Assembly: GCA_030390025.1 (NCBI GenBank) | Contig: CM059432.1 | Coordinates: 54,252,001 to 54,316,000, forward strand | Reading direction: 5' to 3' | Length of the DNA: 64,000 bases | From: Squalus acanthias | Lineage: Eukaryota | Shown here: positions 4,261 through 60,371 of the stretch, piece by piece | How positions within the stretch are numbered: position 1 is the first letter of the stretch | How the letters are laid out: every line of letters begins with the position of its first letter | Program-made: the position numbers and the translations under genes | Notes under the pieces: model-generated | Seen by the model: the letters and a program-made list of their open reading frames with translations, nothing else | Told to the model about the DNA's origin: nothing | Databases searched by the model: none

Positions 4261-4975
4261 TGTGAGACCCTGCAAGCCTCTTTCCACACTCATAAACCCA
4301 GCCACAAATTTTGCGTGCTGCCTACGGCACTTTCAACGGGAGCAGGCAGATCACGCATCGCGATCCCCGCGCCTGTTTTTGAGCCTAATCCAATTTCACC
4401 CCCTAGCAGTCTCCTGTTCCTGCAAAGGAGTATTTTTATTTGCAAGGTTTTTCTTCTGCTAATGCACCTTTCTAGTTTTTTAAAAATCCATAAGCAACAT
4501 ATATCCTGTGGGTATACGATGGCACACTAAACGAAATATTGAGTATCGCATACCAAGAACTACATTTTGGGATTCCCAGTATTGAACAAAGAATCAAATA
4601 AATACTGTTACTCAGCTAGAGGCAATGAGATGCAAAGTACAGTAATGAGATTCCGTATTGCAGACAATGGAATGGTCCAAATTAGCACTAATCTGGTAAC
4701 CTCACTCAGATAAACCATAAGGAATGACTGCACAGGAAAAATCAAATTGCTGTTGTAGGAGATACTCCTCTGAGGTGCAGAGTAAGGGAGTTTTTCCTTC
4801 CATCTTGCCATACCTGACCTCTTTTTTGCTGACACTAGGTGAGATAAATTGAAAATATTCAAATCCCCAGCACCTTATTTGAGCACCATTAAAACATTTT
4901 TAAAAAGTTATACATTTTAGAAATGGAAGCTACAGAATAATATTGTTAGTCTTTGGAAGCTATTCAAAAGACATA

Positions 4976-6359
4976 TTATAATGAAGGCACAAGTTACAGA
5001 AAAGCTTTTTTGTAGCATATCCACATTCAAGGTGAATAGTACTGTAGAGAAGTAATGTCAGAGTAAACTATGTACCCTTTCTGTATCCAATAACATTTCA
5101 TATTGAATAGGCACCTTTAAAGTATAGTCATTAGTTGAAACATTTCTCAGTGGAGCCTGGTAGACTGAAATTTAATTGAAGCAAATGTCCTTTGTTGACT
5201 TAAGGGAGATTTATCCTTGCTAAAAGCATCTGCTAGCCAAGGGTATAAAATGATATGGAGCCAAGGCAGGTGGATGGCGTTAAGATACAGATCAGCCATG
5301 ATCTCATTGAATTGCCGGACAGGCTTGAGGGGCTGAATGGCCTCCTCCCGTTCCTGCGTTTCCTATGTTTCCTATCAATATACAATGTTTTACTCATTTA
5401 CACAGGAATCAATTTGTCAAACTGCATGGAAGAGACATCAACGAATTGTTCTTCACTGACAAACTGACATTTTGTTGAAGGAAACACGCTAAGCTCAGAC
5501 CAAATAGATGGCTGATTATGAAGCACATCCACCAGCCATCACTGAGCTCCACATTGTTAGGCAATTTACAGACAGAGCTGTCGTTTTCTCTTCAGGACAG
5601 CTGCTATTGTCTTTGCTTATTGGTTAGCCAAGAACACAGCAAACGTCAGTAGGGTATGCATTAAAATGAATAAAATGACTCGCATTAGGTCTCACACAGG
5701 CAAGCTATGCTATGCTGCTCTTAATTGTGGCTACTGGATGCTTTTACTATGGATAAATCTGTCTGTAAATTGCCTAACAATGTGGAGCTCAGTGATGGCT
5801 GGTGGATGTGCTTCATAATCAGCCATCTATTTGGTCTGAGCTTAGCGTGTTTCCTTCAACAAAATGTCAGTTTGTCAGTGAAGAACAATTCGCTGATGTC
5901 TCTTCCATGCAGTTTGACAAATTGATTCCTGTGTAAATAAGTACAACATTGCATATTGATAGGAAACATAGGAAACGCAGGAACGGGAGGAGGCCATTCA
6001 GCCCCCTCAAGCCTGTCCGGCAATTCAATGAGATTATGGCTGATCTGTATCTTAACGCCATCCACCTGCCTTGGCTCCATATTATTTTATACCCTTGGCT
6101 AGCAGATGCTTTTAGCAAGGATAAATCTCCCTTAAGTCAACAAAGGACATTTGCTTCAATTAAATTTCAGTCTACCAGGCTCCACTGAGAAATGTTTCAA
6201 CTAATGACTATACTTTAAAGGTGCCTATTCAATATGAAATGTTATTGGATACAGAAAGGGTACATAGTTTACTCTGACATTACTTCTCTACAGTACTATT
6301 CGCCTTGAATGTGGATATGCTACAAAAAAGCTTTTCTGTAACTTGTGCCTTCATTATAA
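4976..6359. repeat. Long inverted duplication: arms 4976-5576 and 5758-6359, 181-bp spacer
   Basis: Arms are near-identical reverse complements. Each arm contains the same CR1 3' tail (~5240-5375 and ~5960-6095). Confidence 0.95.
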
Positions 6360-6949
6360 CATCTCTCTCTCTCTCTCTCCTGCTGTTCATTTTGCATCCA
6401 GGTCCTCTCACAGCAAAGGCCAATGATGACATCATCAGAGACGACTTTCAGACTGAAAACACTAATTGGTTCATGGGTTCCCACATGCTGGAACTCAATT
6501 GCCCAATTAGGTGAAAATTGCATCAATCTCCCACATCCAATTGCAGTCGGGTGGATAACACAAAAAGCGGATGACACAACCCCAACCCGCCCCAGTATCA
6601 AAATCCATGTCTCCTTGTCCTAGACTCCCCCACCAGCAGAAAAAGTTTCTCTCTATCTACTATATCAATTCCTTTCAAAATCCTAAAATCCTCAATCAAA
6701 TCACGCCTTAACCATCTATATTCCAGGGAATACAAGCCTAGTTGTAGGAAGTTCTGGCATAGGTTAGGACCCAGCATATCTCAGGCTTTTTCCATTCATC
6801 TCCACTAGATTCCTGTTGCAGATATGGCAGGAGTCTGCCAGAACACTGTATTCTTAGGATATGATGTGGAGATGCCGGCGTTGGACTGGGGTGGACAAAA
6901 ATGAGAAGTCGCACAACACCAGGTTATAGTCCAACAGATTTATTTAATT

Positions 6950-6988
6950 TTACAAGCTTTCGAAGCAGTTCGCTCCTTCGTCAGGTAA
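6950..6988 (-). ncRNA. Minimal type I hammerhead ribozyme motif
   Basis: Reverse complement reads UUAC-CUGACGA-A-GGAGC(gaacu)GCUUC-GAAA-GC-UU-GUAA. Confidence 0.75.
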
Positions 6989-7239
6989 GTTAGCAATGAG
7001 AGAATCTCCCAGAATTCACAATTTAAACCCAGACAAAATCTATTCACATTATTCCCTACAACAAAGAGCACAGCCAAGACAATGAGATGTGTCCCAGGGG
7101 GTCCAACGTGTCAAACCACCTGCTGGCTGCATATCCTGTCAATTTGTGTTCTTGTGTTAGTCTTTTTTTGTGTGAATAATGTGAATAGATTTTGTCTGGG
7201 TTTAAATTGTGAATTCTGGGAGATTCTCTCATTGCTAAC

Positions 7240-7278
7240 TTACCTGACGAAGGAGCGAACTGCTTCGAAAGCTTGTAA
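7240..7278 (+). ncRNA. Minimal type I hammerhead ribozyme motif
   Basis: TTAC CTGACGA A GGAGC gaact GCTTC GAAA GCTT GTAA: intact core, stem I, stem II and palindromic stem III. Confidence 0.75.
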
Positions 7279-7439
7279 AATTAAATAAATCTGTTGGACT
7301 ATAACCTGGTGTTGTGCGACTTCTCATTCTTAGGATATCTATAAGGCTTTCTTGTAATTATTTTTGTAATTTTATGCTAGCACTTAGGCATTCAGGAGCC
7401 AGTTATCATTCATCTTTTTCTGCCACTAGCCTCTTTTAC

Positions 7440-10005
7440 TGGTGAGTTTGCCGGCAGAGATCCGCTGAGTTGACTTGTTTGGGGGAAGAGGAGGACCAGC
7501 AGGGAATGCCAGGCTGCTCAGCTGCCGAAGAGGTGCTGTGTGCCACCTTACTGGCACCTGCACCTCTGCATCAGCAGAAAGAGGTGTTAAAGCAGTGCTA
7601 AACCATTTAGAACTGACTTACAAGAGAAGACGAAAGCCTAGAAATTCAGCTACATACCATACACTGGTAAGGCCCATTTCTTGAAAAAAAACGGCGGCCG
7701 CCTCACTTCCACCTGCCTCTGGCATGGGACTCGATGGCCACCATTTTGGAGAGGGCAATAGCACTGCCATTAGCAGCGCTGGCCCTAGAAATGCGAAGCA
7801 GCAGAGCGTGACATCAGTCGTCGACTTCACGCCACGCTCTTGAAATTTGGACCTTTGCGCTGACTTTAACGCTGGGTCCTAAGCTCGCACTGAAAAACGA
7901 GTGTGCAGCAGACTGACAGAGAAGCTGTCAGTGCTACTTAAAGGGATACACACATCTTTCAGGTAAGTTTGTATTTAAGCTTTTGGACTGGATTTTTTAT
8001 ATTTTATTGAAGTGGAGTCACTGTTGTAATGTGGGAAACGCGGCAGCCAATTTGCACACAGCAAGCTTCCACAAACAGCAATGTGAAAATGCCCAGATAA
8101 TCTGTTTTTGTTATGTTGGTTGAGGGATAAATATTGGTCAGGACATCGGGGATAACTCCCCTACTTTTCTTCGAAATAGTGCCATGGGATCATTTACGTC
8201 CACCTGAGAGAACAGACAGGGCCTCAATTTAACATCTCATCTGAAAGACGGCACCTCCGATAATGCAGCACTCCCTCAGCACTGCACTGGAGTGTCAGCC
8301 TAGCTTTATGTGCTCAAGTCTCTGGAGTGGGACTTGAACCCACAACCTTCTGACTCAGAGGTGAGTGTGCTACCAACTGAGCCACAGCTGACACTGTGAG
8401 GAAGAAACAGAAGAGGAGGAAGCAGAAGGAAAGATGCAACCCAGCCAGACCCTTTCTGGCCAGGATATCAGAGATGGAATCATCTGCCTGTGGTACCAGT
8501 GACCACAACCCCAATTCTCGTTTCAACATTAGTCCCACACCTTACCTTCCCTCTGTTACTGACCATCACAGCGTCCTCTTGGCCACAATGCTGAAATAAA
8601 AGCCACGACAAAGCAAACTTTCCAATCCAACTTTATACATATATGCATCCAATATGACATCCATAAATCAACTAATCACCCTTGTGCATTCGCTTAGTGA
8701 TTGGCTTGTGTGTGCCTTTGCCTTTCCTGCTGATGTCACGCAGTGCTACTCCAGTGGCTGCAGCATGACTGGTGGAAGGCTGCTGAATTTCAGTAGGGGA
8801 CACTGCAAATGGCCTTGCAGGATGACCTCGAGAAGCTGGTGGCTGGGAGTGTGAAATCGAGTGGCGGTGTTTCTTCTTCTTCTTCTTTACTCTCCTCTTC
8901 CATTCTTGATCAACCATTGGCTGGGCAGGCTGCATTTCTTGGGTGTCAGAAATGAGGAAGGCACAAGGGTGGAGTTGTGGTGAGGGGAGGGCGGGAAAGC
9001 AAGAGGTGCATGCGTATGGAGGATAACGTATGAGGATACCAGCATCTTGTATCCTTTCAGCCCCGCCGTTGGCCAAGGGCTCAGCCATGCCACTGCCAAG
9101 AATGGTCAGCACCATTTCCTCCAAGGGGATGAGGTGAAGCTAGGAATGGGAGGTGTGCCTTGTGTTTGGTCCAGATTGTTGGTAGGTGAGTGATGGGGGG
9201 GCGGTTGTGCTGAGCAGTGTGCGAGGCTAGTGGTGCAGTTGGTAGGAGACGGCTTTTGTAGGTGCATCACTGACCTCGACCACTGTCTGAGGTCACGAAG
9301 CTTCTTTGGGCACTGGAGCTAGGTCGTGGCATTGAGACTGCTGTCATTGATGGCCTCGGTGATCTGGTCCCACATCGTTCTTTCTGGAGGGCCTCCTGGC
9401 CCTCTGTGGTTTGAGGACCCCTCTTGCAGTGTTGACCCCTGCACAAAGCTGGAGTGCTGCGTGCGAGACCCAGGGTGACGCTTCCCTGGGAGACCCTTCC
9501 CTGGCTTGTTGAGCTATTTCTGTTAGTGCTGAAGGACTTTTACCATTTTTTTAGGTGTGCAAGGCAATTCAGCTTTAAGATCTGGATACTGCCATCTATG
9601 AATAATTTTAATTTTTTTTTTCAGACAGCAGTTGAGCTCCACGGGCTAAAAACTGCCTATTTTTTAAATGATTTTTATTTTTTTCATATTAGAAGGCAGT
9701 TCCCCTTTAAGGGATTGACACTGCTTTCTAAAATGACAGCCTTGCTTTAAGAGAAGGCTGCTCTTGCTCCAGGGACGCTACGGCCATGCTACATTGGGCC
9801 TCCTGTTGTGAGTAGCACCAAAAACCAGCCTTACACAGTGAGTTTAGCGCTGCGCTAATGTTAAACTGCAGGCAGCACCAAAATGCCGGTGCTGCCTGTG
9901 AGATTAATTTAAGAGGCTGTTAACAGTGGCCCGCAGTGGCACTGGCAGCTTTTCGGCGCACTCGAACTTTTAGCCTGAAAATCCATATTATGGTCACAAT
10001 TCTCC
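7440..10005. mobile_element. Internally deleted Harbinger element related to H1 (ends approximate)
   Basis: 7685-7970 resembles 2070-2310. 8395-8830 resembles the H1 transposase end, intergenic region and Myb C-terminus (...KRMHKGD). Myb exon-1 remnant at ~9270-9480 on the minus strand. Confidence 0.7.
8005..8393 (-). mobile_element. tRNA-derived SINE (SacSINE1/DeuSINE-like)
   Basis: Minus strand has A box TGGCTCAGTTGG and B box GGTTCAAGTCC. Body is homologous to 37307-37730. Confidence 0.8.
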
Positions 10006-34660: not shown

Positions 34661-34800
34661 ATGCGGAGATGCCGGTGTTGGACTGGGGTGGACAAAATTG
34701 AGAGGTCGCACAACACCAGGTTATAGTCCAACAGTTTTATTTGAAATCACAAGCTTTCGGAGCTATCGATTGCCCCTTCCTCAGGTGAAGTAAATAGATA
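34661..34800 (-). mobile_element. Short Penelope-type insert, same family as 6863 (right limit uncertain)
   Basis: ggagatgccggtgttggactggggtggacaaaa...gttatagtccaacag block shared with 6863-6990. Confidence 0.75.
34747..34788 (-). ncRNA. Minimal type I hammerhead ribozyme motif
   Basis: Reverse complement reads UCAC-CUGAGGA-A-GGGGC(aaucgaua)GCUCC-GAAA-GCUU-GUGA. Confidence 0.75.
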
Positions 34801-40786: not shown

Positions 40787-41273
40787 TACAGCTCACAGGA
40801 GGCAAAAGCCGCAACACAGGGTATATAGGCAGAGGATCAGCTTCCTTGACATGTCCAAAGACCAGTGCCTCAGGAGGCTCAGGGTATCGGGTCAGGTCAT
40901 GGGGGATATTTGCACCCTGTTGGACCAAGACCTGCTGCCAACTGGACCTAATGGCCATGCTTTACCAGTGGCTGTCAAAGTGACCACCGCCCTCAACATC
41001 TTCACATCAGGCTCCTTCTAGTGATTTCCAGGAGATATTTGAAGGAATTTGCAGTCGGTCGCCCACAAATGCATTACACAGTTGACCGTGCCTTGTTTGC
41101 CAGGGCAGACAGTTATGTACACTTTGCCCCCGATGAAGCCAGTCAGACTGAGCAGGTGCTCAGGTTTTTGGCTCTAGCTGGCTTCTCACAGGTGCAGGCG
41201 TCATTGACTACACACATGTGGCAATCAAGGCACCCCCAGATCACCCAGGAGTGTTTGTGAACCATAAGGTTCA

Positions 41274-42957
41274 CAAAGCTGGGTGAGAGTGTAAGTTGTG
41301 AGGAGGATGCAAAGAGGCTTCAAGGGGATATAAACAAGCTAAGTGAGTGGGCAAGAACATGGCAAATGGAATATAATGTGGAGAAATGTGAAGTTATCCA
41401 CTTTGGTAGGAAAAATAGAAAAGCAGAGTATTTTTTAAATGGTGAGAGATTGGGAAATGTTGGTGTTCAGAGGGACCTGGGTGTCCTTTTACACGAATCA
41501 CTGAAAGTTAACATGCAGGTACAGCAAGCAATTAGGAAAGCAAATGATATGTTGGCCTTTATTACAAGAGGATTTTAGTACAAGAGTAAAGGGGGGCAAA
41601 ATTGGGTCATGCCCCCTTTGGGGCGCTAACTTCGCAAGTAGCGCCCTGAAAAAGTTAGCGCCCCCACTCCTGGATGATCTGGGGGTGCCTTGATTGCCAC
41701 ATGTGTGTAGTCAATGCCCCGCACCCGAAATTCACTGGTAGCGCACCAAGAGGGAGGCGGGGCGCTACTGGAATCGTCCCGCCTCCCTCTTGGGGCGCTG
41801 CGAGTGAATATTGCGGCACTAAGTGCAGCAGCGCCACGCGCTGCGGCACATCACGCCGTGGTACTGCAGGCCTTCCTCCCCTTATTAAAGGGGAGGGTCC
41901 TAGCGCAGCACGACCCGGGGCCCAGCTGGGCCACCAGGGATCGGAGTGCCGGCAAAAGAGCCCAGCGCTCAAGAGAAGTGCCGGGCTCACGGAAGGCAGC
42001 CGGCACCCCGTTGGGGGGCTGCACAGGAGGCCAGGGACAGCAACGGGGGCAAGTGCTGGCAGGTGGCCAGCAACAAAAATGGCCACCCGGCACCTCCCCT
42101 TTAATTTGCGCCGCCCCGGCCACAGATAGGCCCCCTTCACACTGTCAGACATAGCGTCCGGCGGTAAATCATGGGGCGCTACCGAAGATCGCGAGCGGGG
42201 TGCTACACAAGGTGATGATGTCATCGCCAGAGGCTCAGCGCCGCGGGGCGCTAACGGTTACTACCGCCGCTAACCTCCAGCTGATTCCCTTAATATCCAA
42301 AAATCTATCGATCTCTGTCTTGATGGGAGGCGCAAATCAACCGAATTTTTCCCCCAAGATGTCTTACTGCGATTATATAGGGCCCTGTTGAGACCACACC
42401 TGGAGTATTGTGTACAGTTCTGGTCTCCTTACCTAAGGAAGGATATACTTGCCATAAATGGGAGTGCAACGAAGGTTCACTCGACTGATTCCTGGAATGG
42501 GGGGATTGTCCTATGAGGAGAGATTGAGTAGACTAGGCCTATATTCTCTAGATTTAGAAGAATGAGAGGTGATCTCATTGAAACATACAAAATTCTTACA
42601 GGGCTTGACAGGGTAGATGCAGGGAGGATGTTTCCCCTGGCTGGGGAGTTTAGAACCAGGGGTCACAGTCTCAGAATAAGGGGTCGGCCATTTAGAACTG
42701 AGATGAGGAGAAATTTCTTCACTCAGAGGGTGGTGAATCTTTGGAATTCTCTACCCCAGAGGGCTGTGGAGGCTCAGTCATTGAATATATTCAAGACAGA
42801 GATCGATAGATTTTTGGATATTAAGGGAATCAAGGGATATGTGGATAGTGCAGGAAAGTGGAGCTGAGGTAGAAGATCAGCCATGATCTTATTGAATGGT
42901 GGAGCAGGCTCGAATGGCCAAATGGCCTACTCCTCCTCCTATTTCTTATGTTCTTAT
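41274..42957 (+). mobile_element. 5'-truncated CR1 LINE
   Basis: KCEVIHFG through RRNFFTQRVV, with tail. Probable TSD GTTCA at 41269-41273 and 42958-42962. Confidence 0.9.
41592..42355. mobile_element. CpG-rich Harbinger MITE nested in CR1
   Basis: AAG TSD at 41589-41591 and 42356-42358. Removing it restores the CR1 sequence aagagtaaagatgtctta. Homologous to 24141-24846. Confidence 0.92.
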
Positions 42958-45499
42958 GTTCATCAATGTGAAGCTCATCTGCAACCACAAAAAGATCATT
43001 ATGCAAGTGTGTGCAAGATTCCCAGGGAGCTACCATGATGCATTTGTCCTGCACCACTCCACCCTCCCTGATCACTTCGCACCTCCAAACAGACTTACCG
43101 TCTAGCTGCTTGGAGACAAGGGCTGTCCACTTAAGACATGGTTGATGACACCCCTGAGGAGCCCAATCAATAAGGCCTAAGAGCGCTACAATCAAAGCCA
43201 TATGACGATGAGATGTGTCATTAAGCAAACAATCGGGATGCTGAAGATGCGCTTCAGGCTCCTCGACAGATCTGGAGGCGAACTTCAATATGCGGCAGCC
43301 AGGCTCTGAAGAATGATTGTGGCTTGCTGTGTTCTGCAGAACAGTGCAGCAGCAAGGATTGGAGCTGTAGGAGGAGCAAGGCACAGAGCACATTGCCTCT
43401 TCAGAGGAGAAAGATGACAAGGAGGAGGAGGAGGAAGAGGAATGTCAGGTGTCCATTGCACCAGCAGTGGTGCACATTGCTGCCCGGGATGCTTGGGATG
43501 GACTCATCATGGTAAGATTTAGTTAGGTTGCACCACTGTAGCCATCTGGCAGCCACATGCTGAACCCACTTGCCCCCTCCCCCAGCACAAAGCAGTCCCG
43601 CAATCAGCAAGGCATCCCTTTCACAGACACCCATTGCTCAGATTTAAGTCTTGTCTTACCAAGCATTAGAACTGAGAAGGCCAGTTGCCAGGTTGCAGGC
43701 AAAAATGGGCAAGACTGGAAAGTGGTGCAAAGCAATAATTTTATATGTGGCTCAAAACTTATACATTAACTTATCAGAGCAACATGTCTATCACACCCAT
43801 GTGCACAACCTTGTGCAACTACTAATCTTTCATTTTCCTTTTCCTACAGCTCCTATGCCGTGTAACTCCTGTGGCTCCAGCAGAGGTAGAGGCAGGCTGC
43901 TCACATCCCTGCCCTGACTGCTGAGATGCTCTTGGCTGACGTTCTCTGGGTTTTGGAGCCCATGAGGGCCCCGCCAAACCCTGCTCCACCTCCACCTGTG
44001 CAGGAGCAGGCTCGACAATCGGGACATGAGGCAGCAGGTGGAGTACTGACTGAGGTGGGGCAATGGGTGAGAAACATAGAAATATAGAAAAATAGGAGCA
44101 GGAGTAGGCCATTCGGCCCATCGAGCCTGCTCCGCCATTCAATATGATCATGGCTGATCCTCTATCTCGATACCATATTCCCGCTCTCTTCCCATACCCC
44201 TTGATGCCTTTTGTGTCTAGAAATCTATCTATCTCCTTCTTAAATATATTCAGTGACTTGGCCTCCACAGCCTTCTGTGGTAGAGAATTCCACAGGTTCA
44301 CCACCCTCTAAGTGAAGAAATTTCTCCTCATCTCAGTCCTAAATGTCCTACCCCGTATCCTGAGACTGTGACCCCTCGTTCTAGACCCCCCAGCCAGGGG
44401 AAACATCTTCCCTGCATCCAGTCTGTCTAGCCCTGTCAGAATTTTGTACGTTTCAATGAGATCCCCTCTCATTCTTCTAAACTCTAGTGAATACAGGCCT
44501 AGTCGACCCAATCTCTCCTCATACGACAGTCCTGCCATCCCAGGAATCAGTCTGGTGAATCTTCGCTGCACTCCCTCTATGGCAAGTATATCCTTTCTTA
44601 GGTAAGGAGACCAAAACTGCACACAGTACTCCAGGTGTGGTCTCACCAAGGCCTTGTATAACTGTAGTAAGACATCCTTGCTTCTGTACTCAAATCCTCT
44701 TGCAATGAAGTCCAACATACCATTTGCCTTCCTAACTGCTTGCTGCACCTGCATGTTTGCTTTCAGTGACTGATGTACAAGGACACCCAGGTCCCTTTGT
44801 ACATCACCATTTTCCAATCTATCACCATTTAAATGATACTCTGCCTTTCTGTTTTTCCTACCGAAGTGGATAACTTCACATTTATCACGTTGTACTGCAT
44901 CTGCCATGTATTTGCCCACTCACTCAACTTGTCTAAATTGCCTTAAAGCCTCTTTGCATCCTCCTCACAACTCACAATCCCACCTAGTTTTGTGTCATCA
45001 GCAAACTTGGAAATATTACATTTGGTTCCCTCATCCAAATCATTGATATATATTGTGACTAGCTGGGGCCCAAGCACTGATCCCTGTGGTACCCCACTAG
45101 TCACCGCCTGCCACCCCAAAAATGACCCATTTGTTCCTACTCTCTGTTTCCTGTCTGTTAACCAATTTTTAATCCATGCCAGTATATTACCCCCAATCCC
45201 ATGTGCTTTAATTTTGCACACTAACCTCATATGTGGGACTTTATCAAAGGCCTTCTGAAAATCCAAATGCACCACATCCACTGGTTCTCCCTTATCTATT
45301 CTACCAGTTACATCCTCAAAAAACTCCAGTAGGTTTGTCAAACATGATTTCCCTTTCATAAATCCATGTTGACTTTGTGTAATCCCGTTGATATTTTCTA
45401 AGTGTCCTGTTATCACATCCTTTATAATAGACTCTAGCATTTTCCCTGCTACTGATATTAGGCTGACCGGTCCGTAGTTCTGTGTTTTCTCTCTCTCTC

Positions 45500-45870
45500 T
45501 GCTGTGATTTCCAGCAAAAAAAGTTTAAAAAAAATTTGTTTTCCATACAGACTCCAGCATCTGCCATATCTGACCCCTTGTGACCCCACCTCATTGTCTT
45601 TGTTGTATTTTGCTATCGTCTTTGATGTAATGTCTTCCTGACTGACCTGGTTGGACACCATCCACACCTTTGATTGCCGTGATTGTCTCTCTGCCGAGGT
45701 GTGATAAAGGGCAGTTAGAAAGATTAACTGTAGTCGTCTGGCATTGTTCTCTGACTACATATGCTGTGCCCATATGTATTTCTTCACTTCACCTGATGAA
45801 GGAGCAGCGCTCCAAAAGCTTGTGATTTCAAATAAAGCTGTTGGACTATAACCTGGTGTTGTGTGACTTC
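45500..45870 (+). mobile_element. Short Penelope-type insert within CR1
   Basis: Interrupts the CR1 at ttttctctctc|tcctttttta. Ends with the aaataaa.ctgttggactataacctggtgttgtg block shared with 7280-7325. Confidence 0.75.
45789..45825 (+). ncRNA. Hammerhead motif with a G12->A core mutation (probably inactive)
   Basis: TCAC CTGATGA A GGAGC agc GCTCC AAAA GCTT GTGA. Confidence 0.65.
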
Positions 45871-48800
45871 TCCTTTTTTAAATAGTGGGGTTACATTTGG
45901 CACCCTCCAATCTGCAGGAACTGTTCCATAATCTATAGAATTTTGGAAGCTGACAACCAATGCATCCACTATTTCCATGGCTACCTCTTTTAGTATTAGA
46001 AGTGGAAGCGCTTTGAGCAGAGTACCCACTTCTATGCCCCGCTTTTCCATTTCCCTCTCATGGCCCACCCGCTAGCAATGAGCTGGAGAGCACTTTGTTG
46101 CACATCCATGGGGCGCTGAATGGCCAAGGCTTGGTTTTGATCCATCCTACTTTAGGTGGCATTCAGAGTGTGCAAGCCATTGGCGAGGGCAAGCATGCAC
46201 TCATTTGACTGCCGCCTTTGATGCTCCATGCTAGTGGCCACTCTTTCTATGGACGAACACATCATAGATAAGGTCTATGACATCATGCCACTCATGCATG
46301 AGATGGACTCCTCCATTCTCTCTGCAAGCATGCAGAGTGCGGCTGGAAATCCTGCCAATACCTCACACATTTTTTGCTGCTGTTCCAGAATCATCCTCTT
46401 TGTCAATGACTCCCGAGGTTCAGCATCTGCATCCAACTGAGGAGAGCATGGAGCATCCTGTGCCCTCCAACGAGGATTCTCTACTGCTGTCCCTGTCTCC
46501 ACCATCTGCTCTTGCTCACATGTGCTGTTTGGGACACCAGATGACAACACAACTATCTGTCTTGCTGCTCCCACTGACGTTGTGTATCTGCGCTGGTGCG
46601 AGGTGTGCATGAGTCCTGTGACGGTGCACCCTCAGAGTTAACGACTTCCTCTAAGGAGTCGTCTTCCTCCTCTGGCACCACCTCCTGTGGGACACTTGAT
46701 GGACCTGTGGGAGATTAAAGACATGAATTATAACTGTTATGATAAGAATGCTTAAAGTTACCATTATGCACATAATCATATTTCACTGGCTGCTGATATC
46801 AAGTCAACATGAGTGACTGTTGTATGCCATGTGGCGGTGTGATATTTAATTCTGCCACCAGGTAGCTGGGAGCTCCCCGTCTCTCCATCTCCGATCGCCA
46901 GGCACGCCGACACTCCGTTTATTCGAGAGCATCCTTCTCTGCAGTTGTCTCCGGTTTTCTGCCTCTCCCTGATGTTCTGTGCTCTCTTCTCCTGCAAGGA
47001 GGGAATCAAGGGACCTTTGAGTGAGAGTCATGGAATGAGTGGAACAGATGGATGGACAACATCTGTTGAGGGTGACTATGAGGGAGAGGCGTGACATTGC
47101 ATTAAGATGAGGGTGAGTGTCAGTGGTGGATGGTCAGATGGGGATGTGAGGAAGTGCATACATAGAGAGGGATGGGTGTACCTGCAAGGTAAGTTGGTGT
47201 GAGGAGTGATGTGCAGGAGAAGGCTTTGGAAGGTAGAGTGAGGGGGTTGGGGTGACTCACACATCAGGATGTAGTTGAATGTCCCATTGCACTCACTTCT
47301 CCTGCCCTCATGAGGTCATTAAAGTGCTTCTTGCTCCAAGAGCGTGGCACCACACTCCCGCTGCTCTCCTCCTCCGCTATCTTCAGCCACACCTTCTTTG
47401 TCATTGAGGCTGGCTTCTTCCTTCCATCAGCAGGGAATGAAATCTCCCTGCTAGCCCTTACACCGCGCAGTATGAAGTCTAGGGACGCATCACTGAAGCG
47501 AAGCGCAGCCTTTGTACGCTGAGACTCCATACTATAGTGCTTGATATGTTTCTCCCACCTCCACAATCCTTCAACTGTCATCTTTGCAGTGTTCCTTTAA
47601 ATACCTCAGCTGAAATAGACCCATGCGTGCCGTAATCATGCCCGCTCATGCTAATTGGTCGGGAAACCCGGAAGTCAGATGCAAATGCAGTGGCTGGGTT
47701 AAAACGCCACTGACAGAGGCACTGCAGCTAATTCCAGGTTTCCCGTGTGCTACCGGACCCCACCTCTTCCAATGCATCGGCAGGTAAATATTCTGGCACT
47801 GTATGTATCCATTACAAATTACTGTATTCGGTTACAATACATTATGATTGATATTGGATGAAACTTTTCGTAACACACATGGCCAAGGGTTTTACTGTTA
47901 AGAAAATAAATAAGTGTTTATTTTGAACTGTAGAAAGGAGAAACTTTGGTAATTTAGTGGATCACAATGTTACAATTCGGCCTTGTCTTTTAATTCTCTT
48001 TATTCGTGATCATTTCAAAATTCAGCTACCAGAGGCAAGGCCAATCTTCCTGTGAACTGAAGCATGGCCTTATGCAGAAAATGCTGAAAGTTGAACTATG
48101 AAGCCTTACACTTGGGGGTATGTAAAATACACTACTGATCCCTCCAATAAATTGAAAAGCATCATGTTGACAGATTGTGTAGCTCAGGCTAAAACAGCTG
48201 ATTTGTATTTATTAAGAGAACACAACATATACAGAGCAAAATGGGTCACTAGAGTAAAATAAAGTACAGTGCTTAATTCCCATCAGTACTATAAACCATT
48301 TTCTGCTACCAAAACAACTAAATTAGCTTTTTATGTAAGCACATACCTTTAATCTCAAAGAGTTCTTACAATGTATACTTGGTTGATTTGAGCAAACTAA
48401 CTCAATGATCATTAGCTATCACATTTATTCTCAGCCTGTAAGGGTTCTGGATACAGAATTATCAATCAGGCCAGATTTCAAGGACACAAGGAGCTGCCTC
48501 TCAAACATTTAGTTCAAGCAGACTCTCACTCCTCCGGGACAAAGCAAATCTGCCACAATAGGCAACACTCTTGTTATCAAACACTCCCTGGAGGAACAGC
48601 CCTTACAGTTAATGGCTCTATCTCTTTCTCAAGAGCCTGGTAAGCAATTTAATCATTTCTATCACTTGGATCGGTTTTGTACCTTCGAACACTGAATAAG
48701 GCATTACAAATCGCTTGCTCCTAAGTGATCGTTATATGTCTGATAGGAAAGTACAAAATATCACATCCCTAATAACATGTCTATTGTTTTACAGGAATCT

Positions 48801-54190: not shown

Positions 54191-56151
54191 CAGCAAGCCT
54201 GAGGATTGGGAGCAGTTTAGAGTTCAGCAAAAAAGGACCAAGAGATTGATTAAGCAGGGAAAAATAGAGTATGAGAGTAAACTTGCAAGGAACTTAAAAG
54301 TGGACTGTAAAAGCTTCTACAAGTAGGTAAAAAGAAAATTATTAGTGAAGACAAATGTAGGTCCCTTACAGTCAGAAATGGGAGAATTTATAATGTGGAG
54401 CAAGGAAATGGCAGGGCAATTAAACAAATACTTGGTTCTGTCTTCATGGAAGAGGACACAAATAACTTCCCAGAAATGCTAGAGAACCAAAGGTCTAGTG
54501 AGAAGGAGGAATTAAAGGAAATTAGTATTAGTAAAAAAATAGTGCTGGAAAAATTAATGGGACTGAAAGTTGATAAATCCCTGATCCAGGGCCTGATAAT
54601 CTGCATCCCAGAGTACTAAAAGAGGTAGCCATGGAAATAGTGGATGCATTGGTTGTCATCTTCCAAAATTCTATAGATTATGGAACAGTTCCTGCAGATT
54701 GGAGGGTGGTAAATGTAACCCCACTATTTAAAAAAGGAGGGAGAGAGATAACTGGGAACTATCATCAATAGTAGGGAAAATGCTAGAGTCTATTATAAAG
54801 GATGTGATAACAGGACACTTAGAAAATATCAACGGGATTAGACAAAGTCACATGGATTTATGAAAGGGAAATCGTGTTTGACAAACCTACTGGAGTTTTT
54901 TGAGGATGTAACTGGTAGAATAGATAAGGGAGAACCAGTGGATGTGGTGTATTTGGATTTTCAGAAGGCCTTTGATTAAAGTCCCACATAAGAGGTTAGT
55001 GTGCAAAATTAAAGCACATGGGATTGGAGGTAATATACTGGCATGGATTGAAAATTGGTTAACAGACAGGAAACAGAGAGTAGGAATAAACGGGTCTTTT
55101 TCGGGGTGGCAGGCGGTGACTAGAAAGGTACCGCAGGGATCAGTGCTTGGGCCCCAGCTATTCACAATATATATCAATGACTTGGATGAGGGAACCAAAT
55201 GTAATATTTCCAAGTTTGCTGACGACACAAAACTAGGTGGGATTGTGAGTTGTGAGGAGGATGCAAAGAGGCTTCAAGGCGATTTAGACAAGTTGAGTGA
55301 GTGGGCAAATACATGGCAGATGAAGTATAACGTGGATAAATGTGAAGTTATCCACTTCGGTAGGAAAAACAGAAAGGCAAAGTATCATTTAAATGGTGAT
55401 AGATTGGGAAATGCTGATGTATAAAGGGACCTGGGTGTCCTTGTACACCAGTCACTGAAAGCAAACATGCAGGTGCAGCAAGCAGTTAGGAAGGCAAATG
55501 GTATGTTGGTCTTCATTGCAAGAGGATTTGAGTACAGGAGCAAGGATGTCTTACTACAGTTGTACAGGGCCTTGGTGAGACCACACCTGGAGTACTGTGT
55601 GCATTTTTGGTCTCCTTACCTAAGAAAGGATATACTTGCCATAGAGGGAGTGCAGCGAAGGTTCACCAGACTAATTCCTGGGATGGCAGGACTGTCGTAT
55701 GAGGAGAGATTGGGTCGACTAGGCCTGTATTCACTAGAGTTTAGAAGAATGAGAGGGGATCTCATTGAAACATATAAAACTCTGACAGGGCTAGACAGAC
55801 TGGATGCAGGGAGGATGTTTCCCCTGGCTGGGGGGTCTAGAACGAGGGGTCACAGTCTCAGGATACGGGGTAGGACATTTAGGACTGACATGAGGAGAAA
55901 TTTCTTCACTCAGAGGGTGGTGTACCTGTGGAATTCTCTACCACAGAAGGCTTTGGAGGCCAAGTCACTGAATATATTTAAGAAGGAGATAGATAGATTT
56001 CTAGACACAAAAGGCATCAAGGGCTATGGGGAGAGAGCGGGAATATGGTATTGAGATAGAAGATCAGCCATGATCATATTGAATGGCGGAGCAGGCTCGA
56101 AGGGCCGAATGGCCTACTCCTGCTCCTATTTTTCTATGTTTTCTATGTTTC
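54191..56151 (+). mobile_element. Young 5'-truncated CR1 LINE
   Basis: RT motifs and (TTTCTATG)n tail. Small target deletion relative to the intact homologous transposase at 58912-58945. Confidence 0.93.
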
Positions 56152-56428
56152 TACTGCAGGGCTCCTCCAGAGCGGTCAAGGCAGCGGAACCGTTGCTTTA
56201 GCACCCTGATAGTATGTTTGATCAGGTTCCTGGTGGCGCTATGGCTGTCATTGTATGCGTGCCGAGCAGGAGTATTGGGGTTGCAGAGGGGTGTCATCAG
56301 CCAGGTGGCGAGTGGATAACCCTTGTCTCCGAACATCCAGCCGCGAGCTTCATGTGGTGGTTGCATTAGTGCTGGGACTCCAGTCTGTCGCAGGATGAAT
56401 GCATTGTGGCTGCTGCCAGGATAGTGGG

Positions 56429-56541
56429 ATAAAATAAAAACAGAAAATGCTGGAGATACTCAGCAGGTCAGGCAGCATCTGTGAAGAGAGAAGCAGAGTT
56501 AACGTTTCAGGTCGATGACCTTTCGTCAGACTGGGCGAAGG
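56429..56541 (-). mobile_element. 113-bp hammerhead-bearing retro-insert (second Penelope-type family)
   Basis: 14-bp TSD GCCAGGATAGTGGG at 56415-56428 and 56542-56555. Confidence 0.88.
56497..56533 (-). ncRNA. Minimal type I hammerhead ribozyme motif
   Basis: Reverse complement reads AGU-CUGACGA-A-AGGUC(auc)GACCU-GAAA-CGU-UA-ACU, with palindromic AACGUU at stem III. Confidence 0.8.
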
Positions 56542-57719
56542 GCCAGGATAGTGGGCATTGACAGCGAGGATGCGCTGTCTGTGGTTGCACACCAACTGAA
56601 CGTTCAGAGAGTGGTAGCCTTTGCAGTTACGGAACACCTCTGCATTGTGATGAGATGCCCGCAATGCCACGTGGGTGCAGTCAATGGCGCCCTGAACCAT
56701 GGGAAAGCCCGTTATCCTTGCAAAACCACATGAGCTTTCATCCTGTTTCTCTCTGGTCATGGGGAATGAGATGTACTCCCTTCTCCATCCGTAGAGAGCA
56801 TCTGTTACCTCTCGGATGCAGCAATGGACAGTGAAATTTTTGCAATATCCCCTGTTGAAGACTGGAAGGAGCCGGTTGCGTAGAAATTGAGAGTGACTGT
56901 GACCTTAATTGCCACTGAGAGAGACGTCCTGGTCCTGAGTTGAGGCTGGAGGTCTGCCTGCAGGATGTGGCAGAGCTCTGTGACCACATCCTTGCTGAAG
57001 CGGAGCCTTCTATGGCACTGCTCCTCTGAGAGATGAATGTAGGAGAAATGCTGCCGGAATACCCATGGAGGGTAAGACCTCCTGTTGAGAGCCCTGTTGG
57101 CCCTCCTCCCTCTGGCCACGTTTTGCAATCTTTTCCGCTGCCTCCGATGGTGACGCTGGAGGGCGAGGTCCAGTGCCAGTACAGCCCCCATTAAATGATG
57201 GAAATGTTGCACTATCAAATGTAACCCAAATGAAAGTGGTAAATTTTTCTCAGCCAGAATAGTCATTCAAGTTGAAAACGATCAAATGGGTAAAAGCGCC
57301 TGTCTGCTTGTGTCAAACTGACAAGGCAGCATTGTTTGCCAACAAAATAAAAACGAGAAGTTGCCCCCTTCAGAGCTCATCTGACTGCAAACCACCTCCT
57401 GAGCCTGTCGTTGCTAATGACAGGTGCTCAGGCAGGGGGCGAGAGCATATTTCTGAGCTGGGACGCTGCGCACCCGGATGCCGTCATGATCTCCGGGCGT
57501 AGGAGATCGTGGCACTAGTGGTTACCACCGCCGCAAACCTCCAGCTCAATCTCGCGGCCGTCGGTATGAGCGCCACGCCCGGTCGCAAATTGGTAGCGCC
57601 CCGTTATTGCCCCCGGAGCCACTAACAGGAGGCGCTACGGTACCGAATTTCTCCCCCATAATCTATAAATGATTTAGATGACTGTATTTAAAGAAGATTA
57701 TCCAAATTTACAAATTTTG

Positions 57720-58846
57720 CTAGAACAATGCAAGAGGCCGAGGACGGTGAGGTCTGAGTGGAGCGGTGAATTAAAGTGACAGGCGACTGGAAGCTCGGGG
57801 TCCCCCTTACGGACTGAACGGAGGTGTTCCGCAAAGCGGTCACCCAATCTGCGTTTCGTCTCCCCAATGTAGAGGAGACCACATCGTGAGCAGCGAATAC
57901 AGTATACTAAATTGCAAGAAGTACAAGTAAATCGCTGTTTCACTTGGAAGGGGTGTTTGGGGCCCTGGACAGTGGGAAGAGGGGAGGTATAAGGGCATGT
58001 GTTGCATCTCCTGCGCTTGCACGGGAAGGTGCCGGGCGAAGGGGAAGGGGTGCTGGGGGCGATAGAGGAGTGGACTAGGGTGTCTCGGAGGGAGCGGTCC
58101 CTACGGAATGCTGAAAGGGGAGGTGAGGGGAAGATGCGTTTCATGGTGGGATCACACTGGAGGTGGCGGAAATGGCGGAGGATGATCCATTGAATGTGGA
58201 GGCTGGTGGGGTGAAAGGTGAGGACAAGGGGAACTCTGTCGTGGTTCCGGGAGGGAGGGGCAGGGGTGAGGGCAGAAGTGCGGGAGATAGAACGGACACG
58301 GTCAAGGGCCATGTCAAACACTGTAGAGGGGAATCCTCGGTTGAGGAAAAAGGAAGACATGTCAGAAGCACTGGTATGGAAGGTGGCATCGTCAGAGCAG
58401 ATGCGGCGGAGACGGAGAAACTGAGAGAATGGAATAGAGTCCTTACAGGAGGCGGGGTGGGAGGAAGTGTAGTCCAGGTAGCTGTGGGAGTCAGTGGGCT
58501 TGTAGTGAATGTTTGTCAATAACCTATCTCCAGAGATGGAGACGGAGAAGTCGAGGAAGGGAAGGGAAGAGTCGGAGATGGACCATGTGAAGGTGAGGGA
58601 AGGGTGGAAATTGGAAGCAAAGTGAATGAAATTATCTAGTTCAGGGCAACAGCAGGAAACGGCACCGATACAGTCATCAATGTACCGGAAAAAGAGGTGA
58701 GGGAGGGGACCTGTGTAGGACTGGAACAAAGAATGTTCACATATCCCACGAAAAGGCAGACATAGCATTTCTGGTACATTGATGACTGTATCGGTGCCGT
58801 TTCCTGCTCTCACCCTGAACTAGATAATTTCATTCACTTTGCTTCC
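57720..58846 (-). mobile_element. Penelope-like retroelement fragment (RT C-terminal half plus GIY-YIG endonuclease), with a terminal inversion
   Basis: ORF 57698-58813 contains FFRYIDD, LPFLD, YKPTDSHSYL, KDSIPFSQFLRLRRICS and NLVYCIRCSRCGLLYIGETKR. Inverted arms 58613-58686 and 58773-58846. Confidence 0.93.
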
Positions 58847-60371
58847 CTGGTGGCATTGGCTGGGTCCTGAGGATTGCCAGGTTATGAAGAATGCAGCACA
58901 CAACTATGAAGAGGGAGACTCGCTCAGGCGAGTACTGCAGGGCTCCTCCTGAGTGGTCCAGACAGCGGAACCGTTGCTTGAGCACGCCCATCGTCTGCTC
59001 ACCGATGTTCCTGGTGGCGAGATGGCTCTCATTCTACCACAGCTCAGCAGGGGTGTTGGGGTTACGGAGCGGTGTAATCAGCCAAGTGTAGAGTGGATAA
59101 CCCTTCTCCCCGAGGAGCCAACCACTTGGCTGATGCGGTGCCTGGAAAAGGTCTGGCACACCAGTCTGGTGCAGGATGAAAGCATCGTGGCTGCTGCCAG
59201 GATAGCGGGCATTGACAGCGAGTATCAGCTGTCTGTGGTCACAGACCAACTGGACGTTTAAGGAGTGGAACCCCTTGCGGTTTCGGAAAACCTCTGTATT
59301 CTCATGCGGTGCCCGCAATGCCACATGCATGCAGTCAATGGCGCCCTACACCATGGGGAAGCCTGCTCTCCTCGCAAAGCCCAATGCGCGTTCATGCTGT
59401 TTGGCCCGGGTCAGCGGGAAAGAGATATACTGGCGTCTCCTTTTATAGAGGGCATTTGTGACCTGACAGATACAGCAATGGAACGCGAACTGGGAGATAT
59501 TGGCGATGTCCCCAGTAGCTGCTTGAAAGGAGCCGGTGGCATAAAAATTCACAGCCACTGTGACCTTCACTGCCACCGACAGAGACATCCTGGTCCTCAG
59601 TTGAGGCTGCAGATCTGGCTGCAGCAGGTGGCAGAGCTCAGTGACCACCTTCTTGCTGAAGCGCAGCCTGTGCAAACACTGCTCCTCAGACAAATTAATG
59701 TAGGAGAATTGTTGCCGAAATACCCTGGGAGGGTAAGGTCTCCTGTACAGAGGCCTGTTGGCCTTCCTCTGTCTGGCCATGATTGCCACTCTCTCTCTGC
59801 GTCTCTGTTGCCTCCGATTCTACAGGCACAGGACGACGCCCCGAATCAGTGCAGCCCCCAAAGTCTCTTGGTAATCGAAGTAATGACGGTCAAATCCAAA
59901 AGTACCTGCAAAGTGATGCTCAGTAGCCAAAACTACTTCACACAGCGTTGACTCTATGCAGAAGTCTCTCCTTCTCTCTCTCAGAATCTCTCTCTCTCTG
60001 TCAGAATGAGTGGTGCAAAAATGTCTACCACAGAAAAAGCCAGGAAGAGGCCACCTTTAAATAGCGCCGCCCCAGCCCCTCACCGACTGGGAAACATTCC
60101 AGTCTCCCTGTCGTTGCTTGCGCCAGGCGGAAAGGAGGGGGGCGCCACTTAATATCCGGTCCGGGGTGCCACAAGGGCGTTGCACGCTCGACTGACGTCA
60201 TGATCTGCGGGCGCAGGAGATCGGAGCGGTAGTGTTTAGCGCTGCCGCAAAATGTCTGGTCAATTTCGCGAGCGGCACAGACATCACCGTGCCCGGGCGC
60301 TAGTTGCTTTGCGCCCCATTAGCGCCCTCTTAAGGCGCTAACGGGAGGCGCAAACCTACCAAATTTTCCCC
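58847..60371 (-). mobile_element. Truncated Harbinger H5: transposase (~59860-58847) plus one terminus
   Basis: [28 protein letters not shown] motifs. Terminus 60290-60371 is nearly the same as the MITE end at 24758-24846. Confidence 0.88.

Follow-up and report, generated by a model that had tools for sequence, protein, structure and literature searches.

Insertions of Penelope-like elements completed by an adjacent inverted pLTR, with a 31-bp tail at one end and target-site duplications (TSDs) of 8-10 bp, have been described, head-to-head being the most frequent arrangement, and self-priming was proposed for them (PMC3846280). The same scheme, with a tail of 30-40 bp, was presented in PMC8557442. 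Minimal hammerheads were defined in PMC4209133, which also reports motif pairs separated by 100-700 bp, with one motif on either strand. In vitro, a Penelope/Poseidon protein, predicted to be a dimer, was shown to cut and extend both target strands, with a preference for ATT; its reverse transcription starts at two sites bounding the tail, and among the RNA reads described in that work none ended at the hammerhead cut (PMC11167929). Non-LTR retrozymes were reported in one cartilaginous fish (bioRxiv 10.64898/2026.07.22.740005).

The insert analysed here lies in a window of 64 kb, by which we mean the whole stretch of DNA under study. Like Pen2a, Pen2 and Pen3a of Adineta (PMC3846280, PMC8557442), it consists of head-to-head, inverted, 5'-truncated pLTRs with a tail of 30-40 nt at one end, the whole unit is enclosed within one TSD, and the empty site holds one TSD copy; it differs from them in the length of the TSD (13 bp instead of 8-10 bp) and in having no ORF or cargo between the arms. 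This layout is not unusual and is the published default for Penelope-like elements. With the hammerheads of metazoan pLTRs (PMC4209133) it shares the CUGANGA core, the extra nucleotide before stem II, the G10.1-C11.1 pair, a 4-bp stem I, a palindrome replacing helix III and the occurrence as opposite-strand pairs, whereas stem II has 5 bp here and 7-8 bp in the Schistosoma families; no entry for a cartilaginous fish was found in one supplement file of that paper. PAc, the Poseidon element of Anolis carolinensis, likewise has two adjacent 3' ends bounding a tail, an ATT target and a hammerhead near the pLTR end; in PAc, reverse transcription begins within the ORF, at sites 111-118 nt from its start, and the start codon is overlapped by the hammerhead (PMC11167929). 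Non-LTR retrozymes are similarly short, non-coding and pLTR-related and carry a type I hammerhead, but they form direct tandem repeats which permit dimeric cleavage (bioRxiv 10.64898/2026.07.22.740005). An assignment to that class was rejected, as there is no tandem array at this locus and the inverted pair offers one sense motif per strand.

Layout of the insert and its target site

The insert occupies positions 6863-7325 (463 bp) of the window sequence, between two exact copies of a 13-mer which agree in 13 of 13 letters (Table 1). Some exact 13-mer repeat was found by chance in 10 of 500 resampled 1.6-kb stretches, which precludes reliance on odds alone, so that the assignment of these copies as a TSD depends on the empty site. 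Parts of the region 6400-7800 are present in 20 sequencing runs, four of which (X1, X5, X6 and X8, all as short-read contigs) were examined. Record 21 of X6, 265 letters long and free of differences, joins 6714-6849 straight to 7326-7454 and contains the 13-mer once. Since the empty site has a single copy, we regard the repeat as a true target-site duplication and the insertion as recent; a chance duplication is ruled out by the same record. The contig has a depth of 2.8, so a filled allele in the same sample is also possible, and the label of X6, organism B, could denote a sister species or the same species relabelled.

The filled site is represented in X1 and X5 (two samples of organism A, each from a different study) by an unbranched contig running from 7305 into the right flank, at a flank depth of 15.3 and 16.8, respectively; no more than 21 of its letters belong to the insert, whereas 31 are required for bridging, and X1 is possibly the source of the window itself. 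Neither the left nor the central junction occurs among the 31 records listed, beside which there are 33,947 further pieces. Repeat contigs cover the insert throughout, also at its centre, and they are very numerous in each of the four runs. Low cover at 6776-6822 in X1 and X5 is a hole of no evidential value, and X8, which is RNA by guess only, does not cover the unique flanks and is uninformative on transcription.

Table 1. Positions of the insert, its parts and its relatives within the window
Feature	Positions	Strand	Evidence
Left copy of the 13-bp target-site duplication	6850-6862	+	Identity with 7326-7338; single copy in X6 record 21
Tail, a 3' extension of 37-40 nt on one arm only	6863-6902	-	Left end on the long terminus of the family; shares 2 nt (AT) with the target
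Tailed copy, a 309-nt, 5'-truncated 3' end (pLTR) of the element	6863-7171	-	Repeat contigs across 6863-7198 in four of four runs
Minimal type I hammerhead motif, left arm	6950-6988	-	Mirror of 7240-7278; predicted cut between 6954 and 6953
Unpaired hairpin centre, element sequence present once	7057-7171	- (presumed)	Repeat contig cover
Tail-less inverted copy, 154 nt	7172-7325	+	Right end on the short terminus of the family; shares 3 nt (ATT) with the target
Minimal type I hammerhead motif, right arm	7240-7278	+	Motif and stems; predicted cut 7274/7275
Right copy of the 13-bp target-site duplication	7326-7338	+	Filled-site junction in record 7 of X1 and record 16 of X5
Older relative with one arm, a hammerhead and the tail (long terminus)	34661-34791	-	85% over 131 bp
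Older single-arm relative at the short terminus, inserted in a LINE copy	45786-45878	+	84% over 95 bp

One high-copy repeat end is present in the insert twice, 5'-truncated both times and arranged head-to-head, as a copy of 309 nt with the tail and one of 154 nt without it. Pairing of the arms extends over 155 bp with no mismatch (6900-7054 with 7174-7328), followed by a single mismatch at 7055 and then a ragged extension up to 171 bp. At 7029/7199 both arms carry C, a minority letter among the contigs, where A accounts for about two-thirds of the summed depth in X1, X5 and X6. The complementarity of 155 of 155 letters, together with this shared minority letter, argues for one template and a young insert. 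Only the left arm bears an extension, of 37 nt past the complementary part or of 40 nt when counted from the TSD. An earlier note, made from the letters only, had described a 463-bp insert with a 13-bp TSD and near-perfect inverted arms of about 150 bp, and had proposed to look for the 13-mer twice or once at the empty site; the layout was borne out and the 13-mer is there once. Of the extra terminal block it placed on the left arm, the position held but the exact length of 38 bp did not.

The 115-nt centre of the hairpin is repeat sequence and not a neutral spacer. Most likely the tailed copy extends through it in the 5' direction, as family variants at 7064, 7115 and 7147 continue across it, and we infer that the 5' limit of this copy falls at 7168-7171. 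At the base of the centre there is an imperfect complementarity of 7 of 8 letters, approximately between 7059-7066 and 7162-7169. The target and the element overlap by two letters on the left and three on the right, with ATT at the top-strand start and AT at the bottom-strand start of this TSD, and the tail-less copy matches the target in five of six letters over ATTCTT. Use of the 3-nt overlap despite 5-nt ones at 7213 and 7223 suggests that the right end is a fixed site and not the best microhomology. Six-frame translation of the insert gave no long frame of note, and the single 99-aa frame over it had no Pfam match.

A separate observation concerns the tail with its immediate surroundings (6863-6910, minus strand), where a pyrimidine tract followed by CAG resembles a 3' splice site, and the final CAT might form the beginning of an ATG. 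The arrangement may be akin to the intron end in the pLTR of Penelope.

Family termini, other copies and the surrounding window

Among the rows listed, beside which there are 868 further loose-end rows, contig ends with unlike flanks were found at 6861 (57 in X5, 20 in X6 and 20 in X8) and at 6902 (four in X8). Because 6902 mirrors 7326, and 6861 corresponds to the left end, both arms stop at ends which are used by other copies; the left end is the long family terminus and the right end the short one. The same two 3' ends as in the insert are displayed by two relatives in the window, of which 34661-34791 is tailed and 45786-45878 tail-less. A TSD was searched for at the former and not found, and the latter has a damaged hammerhead core, with GAAA changed to AAAA.

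Joints between the arms point to further copies of this kind. Fourteen of the 15 joints in the main listing (89 further rows) lead from the left arm into the right one at positions other than that of this insert, and a second listing (43 further rows) adds four left-to-right joints, so that 18 were considered in total. All of these 18 lie at differing places, none at the centre of this insert, and three of the head-to-head joints listed are common to X1 and X5. Their sides are short (20-29 letters), mostly with an undefined stretch between them, and they are thus best read as other head-to-head copies and not as mapped loci. A few stand at a contig depth of 160-320, compared with 15-17 for unique flank, including 6943 to 7281 in X1 and X5, summed contig depth not being equal to copy number.

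The arm starts of the listed joints, from 6878-7020 to 7191-7301, are concentrated to either side of the hammerhead core and spare the core itself. Out of 36 arm starts in the 18 joints listed, 19 fall in 7273-7304, at or no more than 30 nt after the predicted cut, and 13 in 7223-7243, at the 5' edge of stem I; four lie elsewhere and none in the core (7244-7272). The two arm starts of a joint are at most 10 nt apart in 14 of the 18 listed. This clustering may mark a cut or structured template, but the rows represent the best-supported few, the alignment of older subfamilies begins only at about 7283, and the stretch is AT-rich.

Exact-pattern scans for other loci returned none in viral_contigs, none in metagenome_contigs (scanned twice) and none in genome_contigs, and no ORF linked to this pLTR type was found in the window or in these four scans. 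A literature search by title or abstract start, confined to one library, retrieved nothing on this repeat family or this layout; for Penelope hammerheads of sharks, its sole match uses the word 'shark' for a shape only.

The window is rich in repeats. Among its 174 stop-to-stop frames of at least 85 aa, 146 were scanned and 12 were Pfam-positive, all of transposon type (DDE_Tnp_4, Myb/SANT, RVT_1, endonuclease and GIY-YIG domains); a scan at this length would miss short exons, and the region could be a host intron. One frame of 373 aa (57701-58819) matches 110 longer reverse transcriptase proteins, many of them with GIY-YIG; the highest identity is 65%, with 64% of the query aligned, and the protein concerned bears the name of a bamboo shark. 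This suggests a cartilaginous fish as the source and shows that Penelope-type RT/GIY-YIG elements exist in this genome. It has no sequence in common with the repeat of the insert. The Penelope-type fragment to which it belongs (57701-58846, minus strand) is cut at both ends; at its 5' end there is an inverted piece of 79 bp (58768-58846 versus 58613-58691, 95%), and an 11-bp direct repeat is present at 57677 and 58781.

Several neighbouring structures deserve mention in their own right. A single-arm insert of 113 bp (56429-56541, minus strand), with a second type of hammerhead-bearing end, lies inside a DDE_Tnp_4 transposase copy and is flanked by a 14-bp TSD (56415-56428 and 56542-56555); the paralogue at 59161-59252 is gapless and empty, with one TSD copy. 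A second, larger palindrome is situated 0.5 kb to the left of the insert (4969-5576 and 5758-6366, 599 of 608 aligned bp identical, with a 181-bp spacer). No TSD and no hammerhead were found in it; its right end runs into a (CT)n tract, and it contains a piece of LINE-like repeat together with apparently host sequence. Two young LINE reverse transcriptase copies (44070-45995 and 54614-56152), 96-98% alike, lie in opposite orientation about 9 kb apart, and the former is interrupted at about 45457-45869 by hammerhead-type end pieces, the left junction of which is messy and for which there is no clean TSD. Inverted pairs for which no TSD was found were also noted at 41202-41253 and 41665-41716 (52 bp, 98%, 411 bp apart) and at 42282-42323 and 42791-42832 (42 bp, 100%, 467 bp apart).

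Hammerhead motifs and the predicted hairpin

The core and stems of a hammerhead are located in both arms, precisely where the earlier note had placed them. In the right arm, a 4-bp stem I (7240-7243 with 7275-7278) encloses the core CUGACGA (7244-7250), an extra A, a 5-bp stem II (7252-7266), GAAA (7267-7270) and a palindromic AAGCUU instead of helix III. The G10.1-C11.1 pair and the palindromic positions 15.2-16.2 are likewise present in the hammerheads of the insert. Rfam gave no match at gathering in the 64-kb window and three weak, unrelated matches in 6700-7500, and as it finds no hammerhead here, the motif and the stems are the basis of this assignment. The stems are paired in 36 of 36 cells over four rows, with one two-sided change, a score equalled by 83 of 500 shuffles and to which the two identical arms contribute two rows. 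The isolated stretches fold no better than shuffles (z from -0.6 to -1.8), as expected for minimal motifs, and two free copies are predicted to co-fold through AAGCUU, as a dimer needs.

The RNA fold predicted for the insert is one long stem of -328.6 kcal/mol (z -37), and none of 100 shuffles was as stable. Enforcing the hammerhead fold within it costs +70.8 kcal/mol on both strands, the pair probability being lower than 1e-18. There is one sense hammerhead per strand, and because the arms are head-to-head, the antisense arm would be transcribed before it on both strands. Given this order and the cost of the hammerhead fold, a read-through RNA is predicted to be a plain duplex, and the hairpin is expected to keep the hammerheads of the insert trapped and inactive. 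Minimal hammerheads of such kind are described as inactive when single (PMC4209133), and the Penelope/Poseidon hammerhead needed the protein of the element and was dispensable for insertion in vitro (PMC11167929). Thus, the long RNA hairpin foreseen in the earlier note agrees with the fold, whereas its suggestion that read-through transcripts would contain a ribozyme fares poorly, a working one being disfavoured by the energy cost, by the precedence of the antisense arm and by the inactivity of minimal single motifs. A working double ribozyme was rejected, as the hairpin fold is predicted to win.

Origin of the insert and what it means

A Penelope-like origin of the insert is, in our opinion, very probable. 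It is supported by the RT/GIY-YIG fragment present in the window (57701-58819), and the tail, the TSD, the empty site and the published layout uphold the initial description of the locus as a Penelope insertion with inverted, partly duplicated pLTRs. The insert is real and young, and most likely an ordinary Penelope-like stub of a known kind. It seems moderately likely to us that such an origin and dual priming jointly account for it. According to this explanation, a Penelope-like RT/GIY-YIG protein would recently have written the insert in one aborted retrotransposition event, having nicked the two strands of the target at points 13 nt from each other. The end of the top strand would have primed cDNA synthesis at the tail end of the RNA, with 309 nt copied, and the bottom-strand end would have primed at a second start site 40 nt upstream, with 154 nt copied; the two cDNA ends would then have been joined in the middle, and fill-in would have yielded the TSD. 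The hammerheads, working as dimers or together with the protein, would be of use to the parent RNA and passengers at this locus, where the insert is probably neutral.

Dual priming is favoured because the outer ends both coincide with fixed ends of the family, better microhomologies having been left unused, and because the Penelope/Poseidon protein cuts and extends either target strand in vitro and prefers ATT (PMC11167929). L1 twin priming, in which both target ends prime reverse transcription and leave an inversion within one TSD, yields arms taken from different parts of the RNA. In the present insert, one stretch of 154 nt is represented in both arms, and these begin at two fixed sites. 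What speaks against dual priming is that the anole enzyme starts at places 'not homologous' to the cut DNA (PMC11167929), compared with overlaps of 2-3 nt at this locus, and that the left and central junctions are absent among the read records listed. Against the joint explanation it also counts that the sequences examined contain no ORF linked to this pLTR type.

A possible, though less probable, alternative assumes the same Penelope-like origin and a mirror arm formed by fold-back: a cDNA primed at the tail end would snap back with its 3' end near 7160-7171, copy itself up to the tail boundary and be resolved onto the other target end by endonuclease or end-joining. For the near-symmetric joints (14 of the 18 listed), this would be a simpler explanation than a pair of truncations independent of each other; the centre, unpaired and with 7/8 complementarity at its base, presumably belongs to the tailed arm, as fold-back requires. 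Self-priming is, moreover, the reading given in PMC3846280, and resolution of the tail by endonuclease that of PMC8557442. However, the second step would need to halt exactly at the short terminus, which is also used by single-arm copies (45786-45878) and is a start site of reverse transcription in vitro (PMC11167929), and the better overlaps at 7213 and 7223 would have been passed over.

Other explanations appear far less plausible than either dual priming or fold-back. It is very improbable that the palindrome itself is mobile, as a MITE-like or non-autonomous retro-unit copied whole: it does have long terminal inverted repeats with a TSD, and the joints of high contig depth, such as 6943 to 7281 in X1 and X5, may mean shared centres, but its ends are asymmetric, with the tail at one end only, single-arm copies exist, the 18 joints listed are at different places with none at this centre, and contig depth gives no copy number. 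A MITE or fold-back DNA transposon was rejected, as the termini at the two TSDs are not symmetric. One could also imagine a functional, selected locus, the read-through RNA of which cleaves itself or feeds Dicer or ADAR and silences the family, in keeping with the predicted perfect duplex of 155 bp and -328.6 kcal/mol, with the intact hammerhead cores and with the small RNAs to which Penelope copies give rise in rotifer and fly (PMC3846280). We find this hardly likely for an insert which is absent in X6, and so too young or variable to show selection, which disfavours the hammerhead fold by 70.8 kcal/mol, and around which no host gene was seen, the 12 Pfam-positive of 146 frames all carrying transposon domains in a scan that short exons escape. 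Barely credible is an assembly artefact (a fold-back chimera) or a pair of unrelated insertions at one site; it would fit with the missing left and central junctions and with X1 being perhaps the sample of the window, and it is contradicted by the clean TSD confirmed by the empty site, by the right junction in two samples of two studies, by the position of both ends on family termini and by the three other head-to-head joints shared by X1 and X5.

As a textbook Penelope-like stub, this single locus has little weight. Because it is clean and very young and an empty allele exists, it provides a presence/absence marker and shows the recent activity of the family. The making of inverted-plus-tail insertions and the role of the hammerheads are stated to be open in PMC8557442 and PMC11167929, and a genome with many young stubs makes it possible to separate dual priming from fold-back through counts and to put the clustering around the hammerhead to the test. 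It is conceivable, if rather unlikely, that a Penelope-like family active to this day has left many fresh palindromic stubs which record the transposition intermediate, in which cDNAs primed by both target ends, from the two sites that bound the tail on one RNA, both stop where the hammerhead cut or folded the template. If true genome-wide, the clustering of arm starts would constitute in-genome evidence for ribozyme-cleaved RNA as a template, unlike the result of the anole study (PMC11167929).
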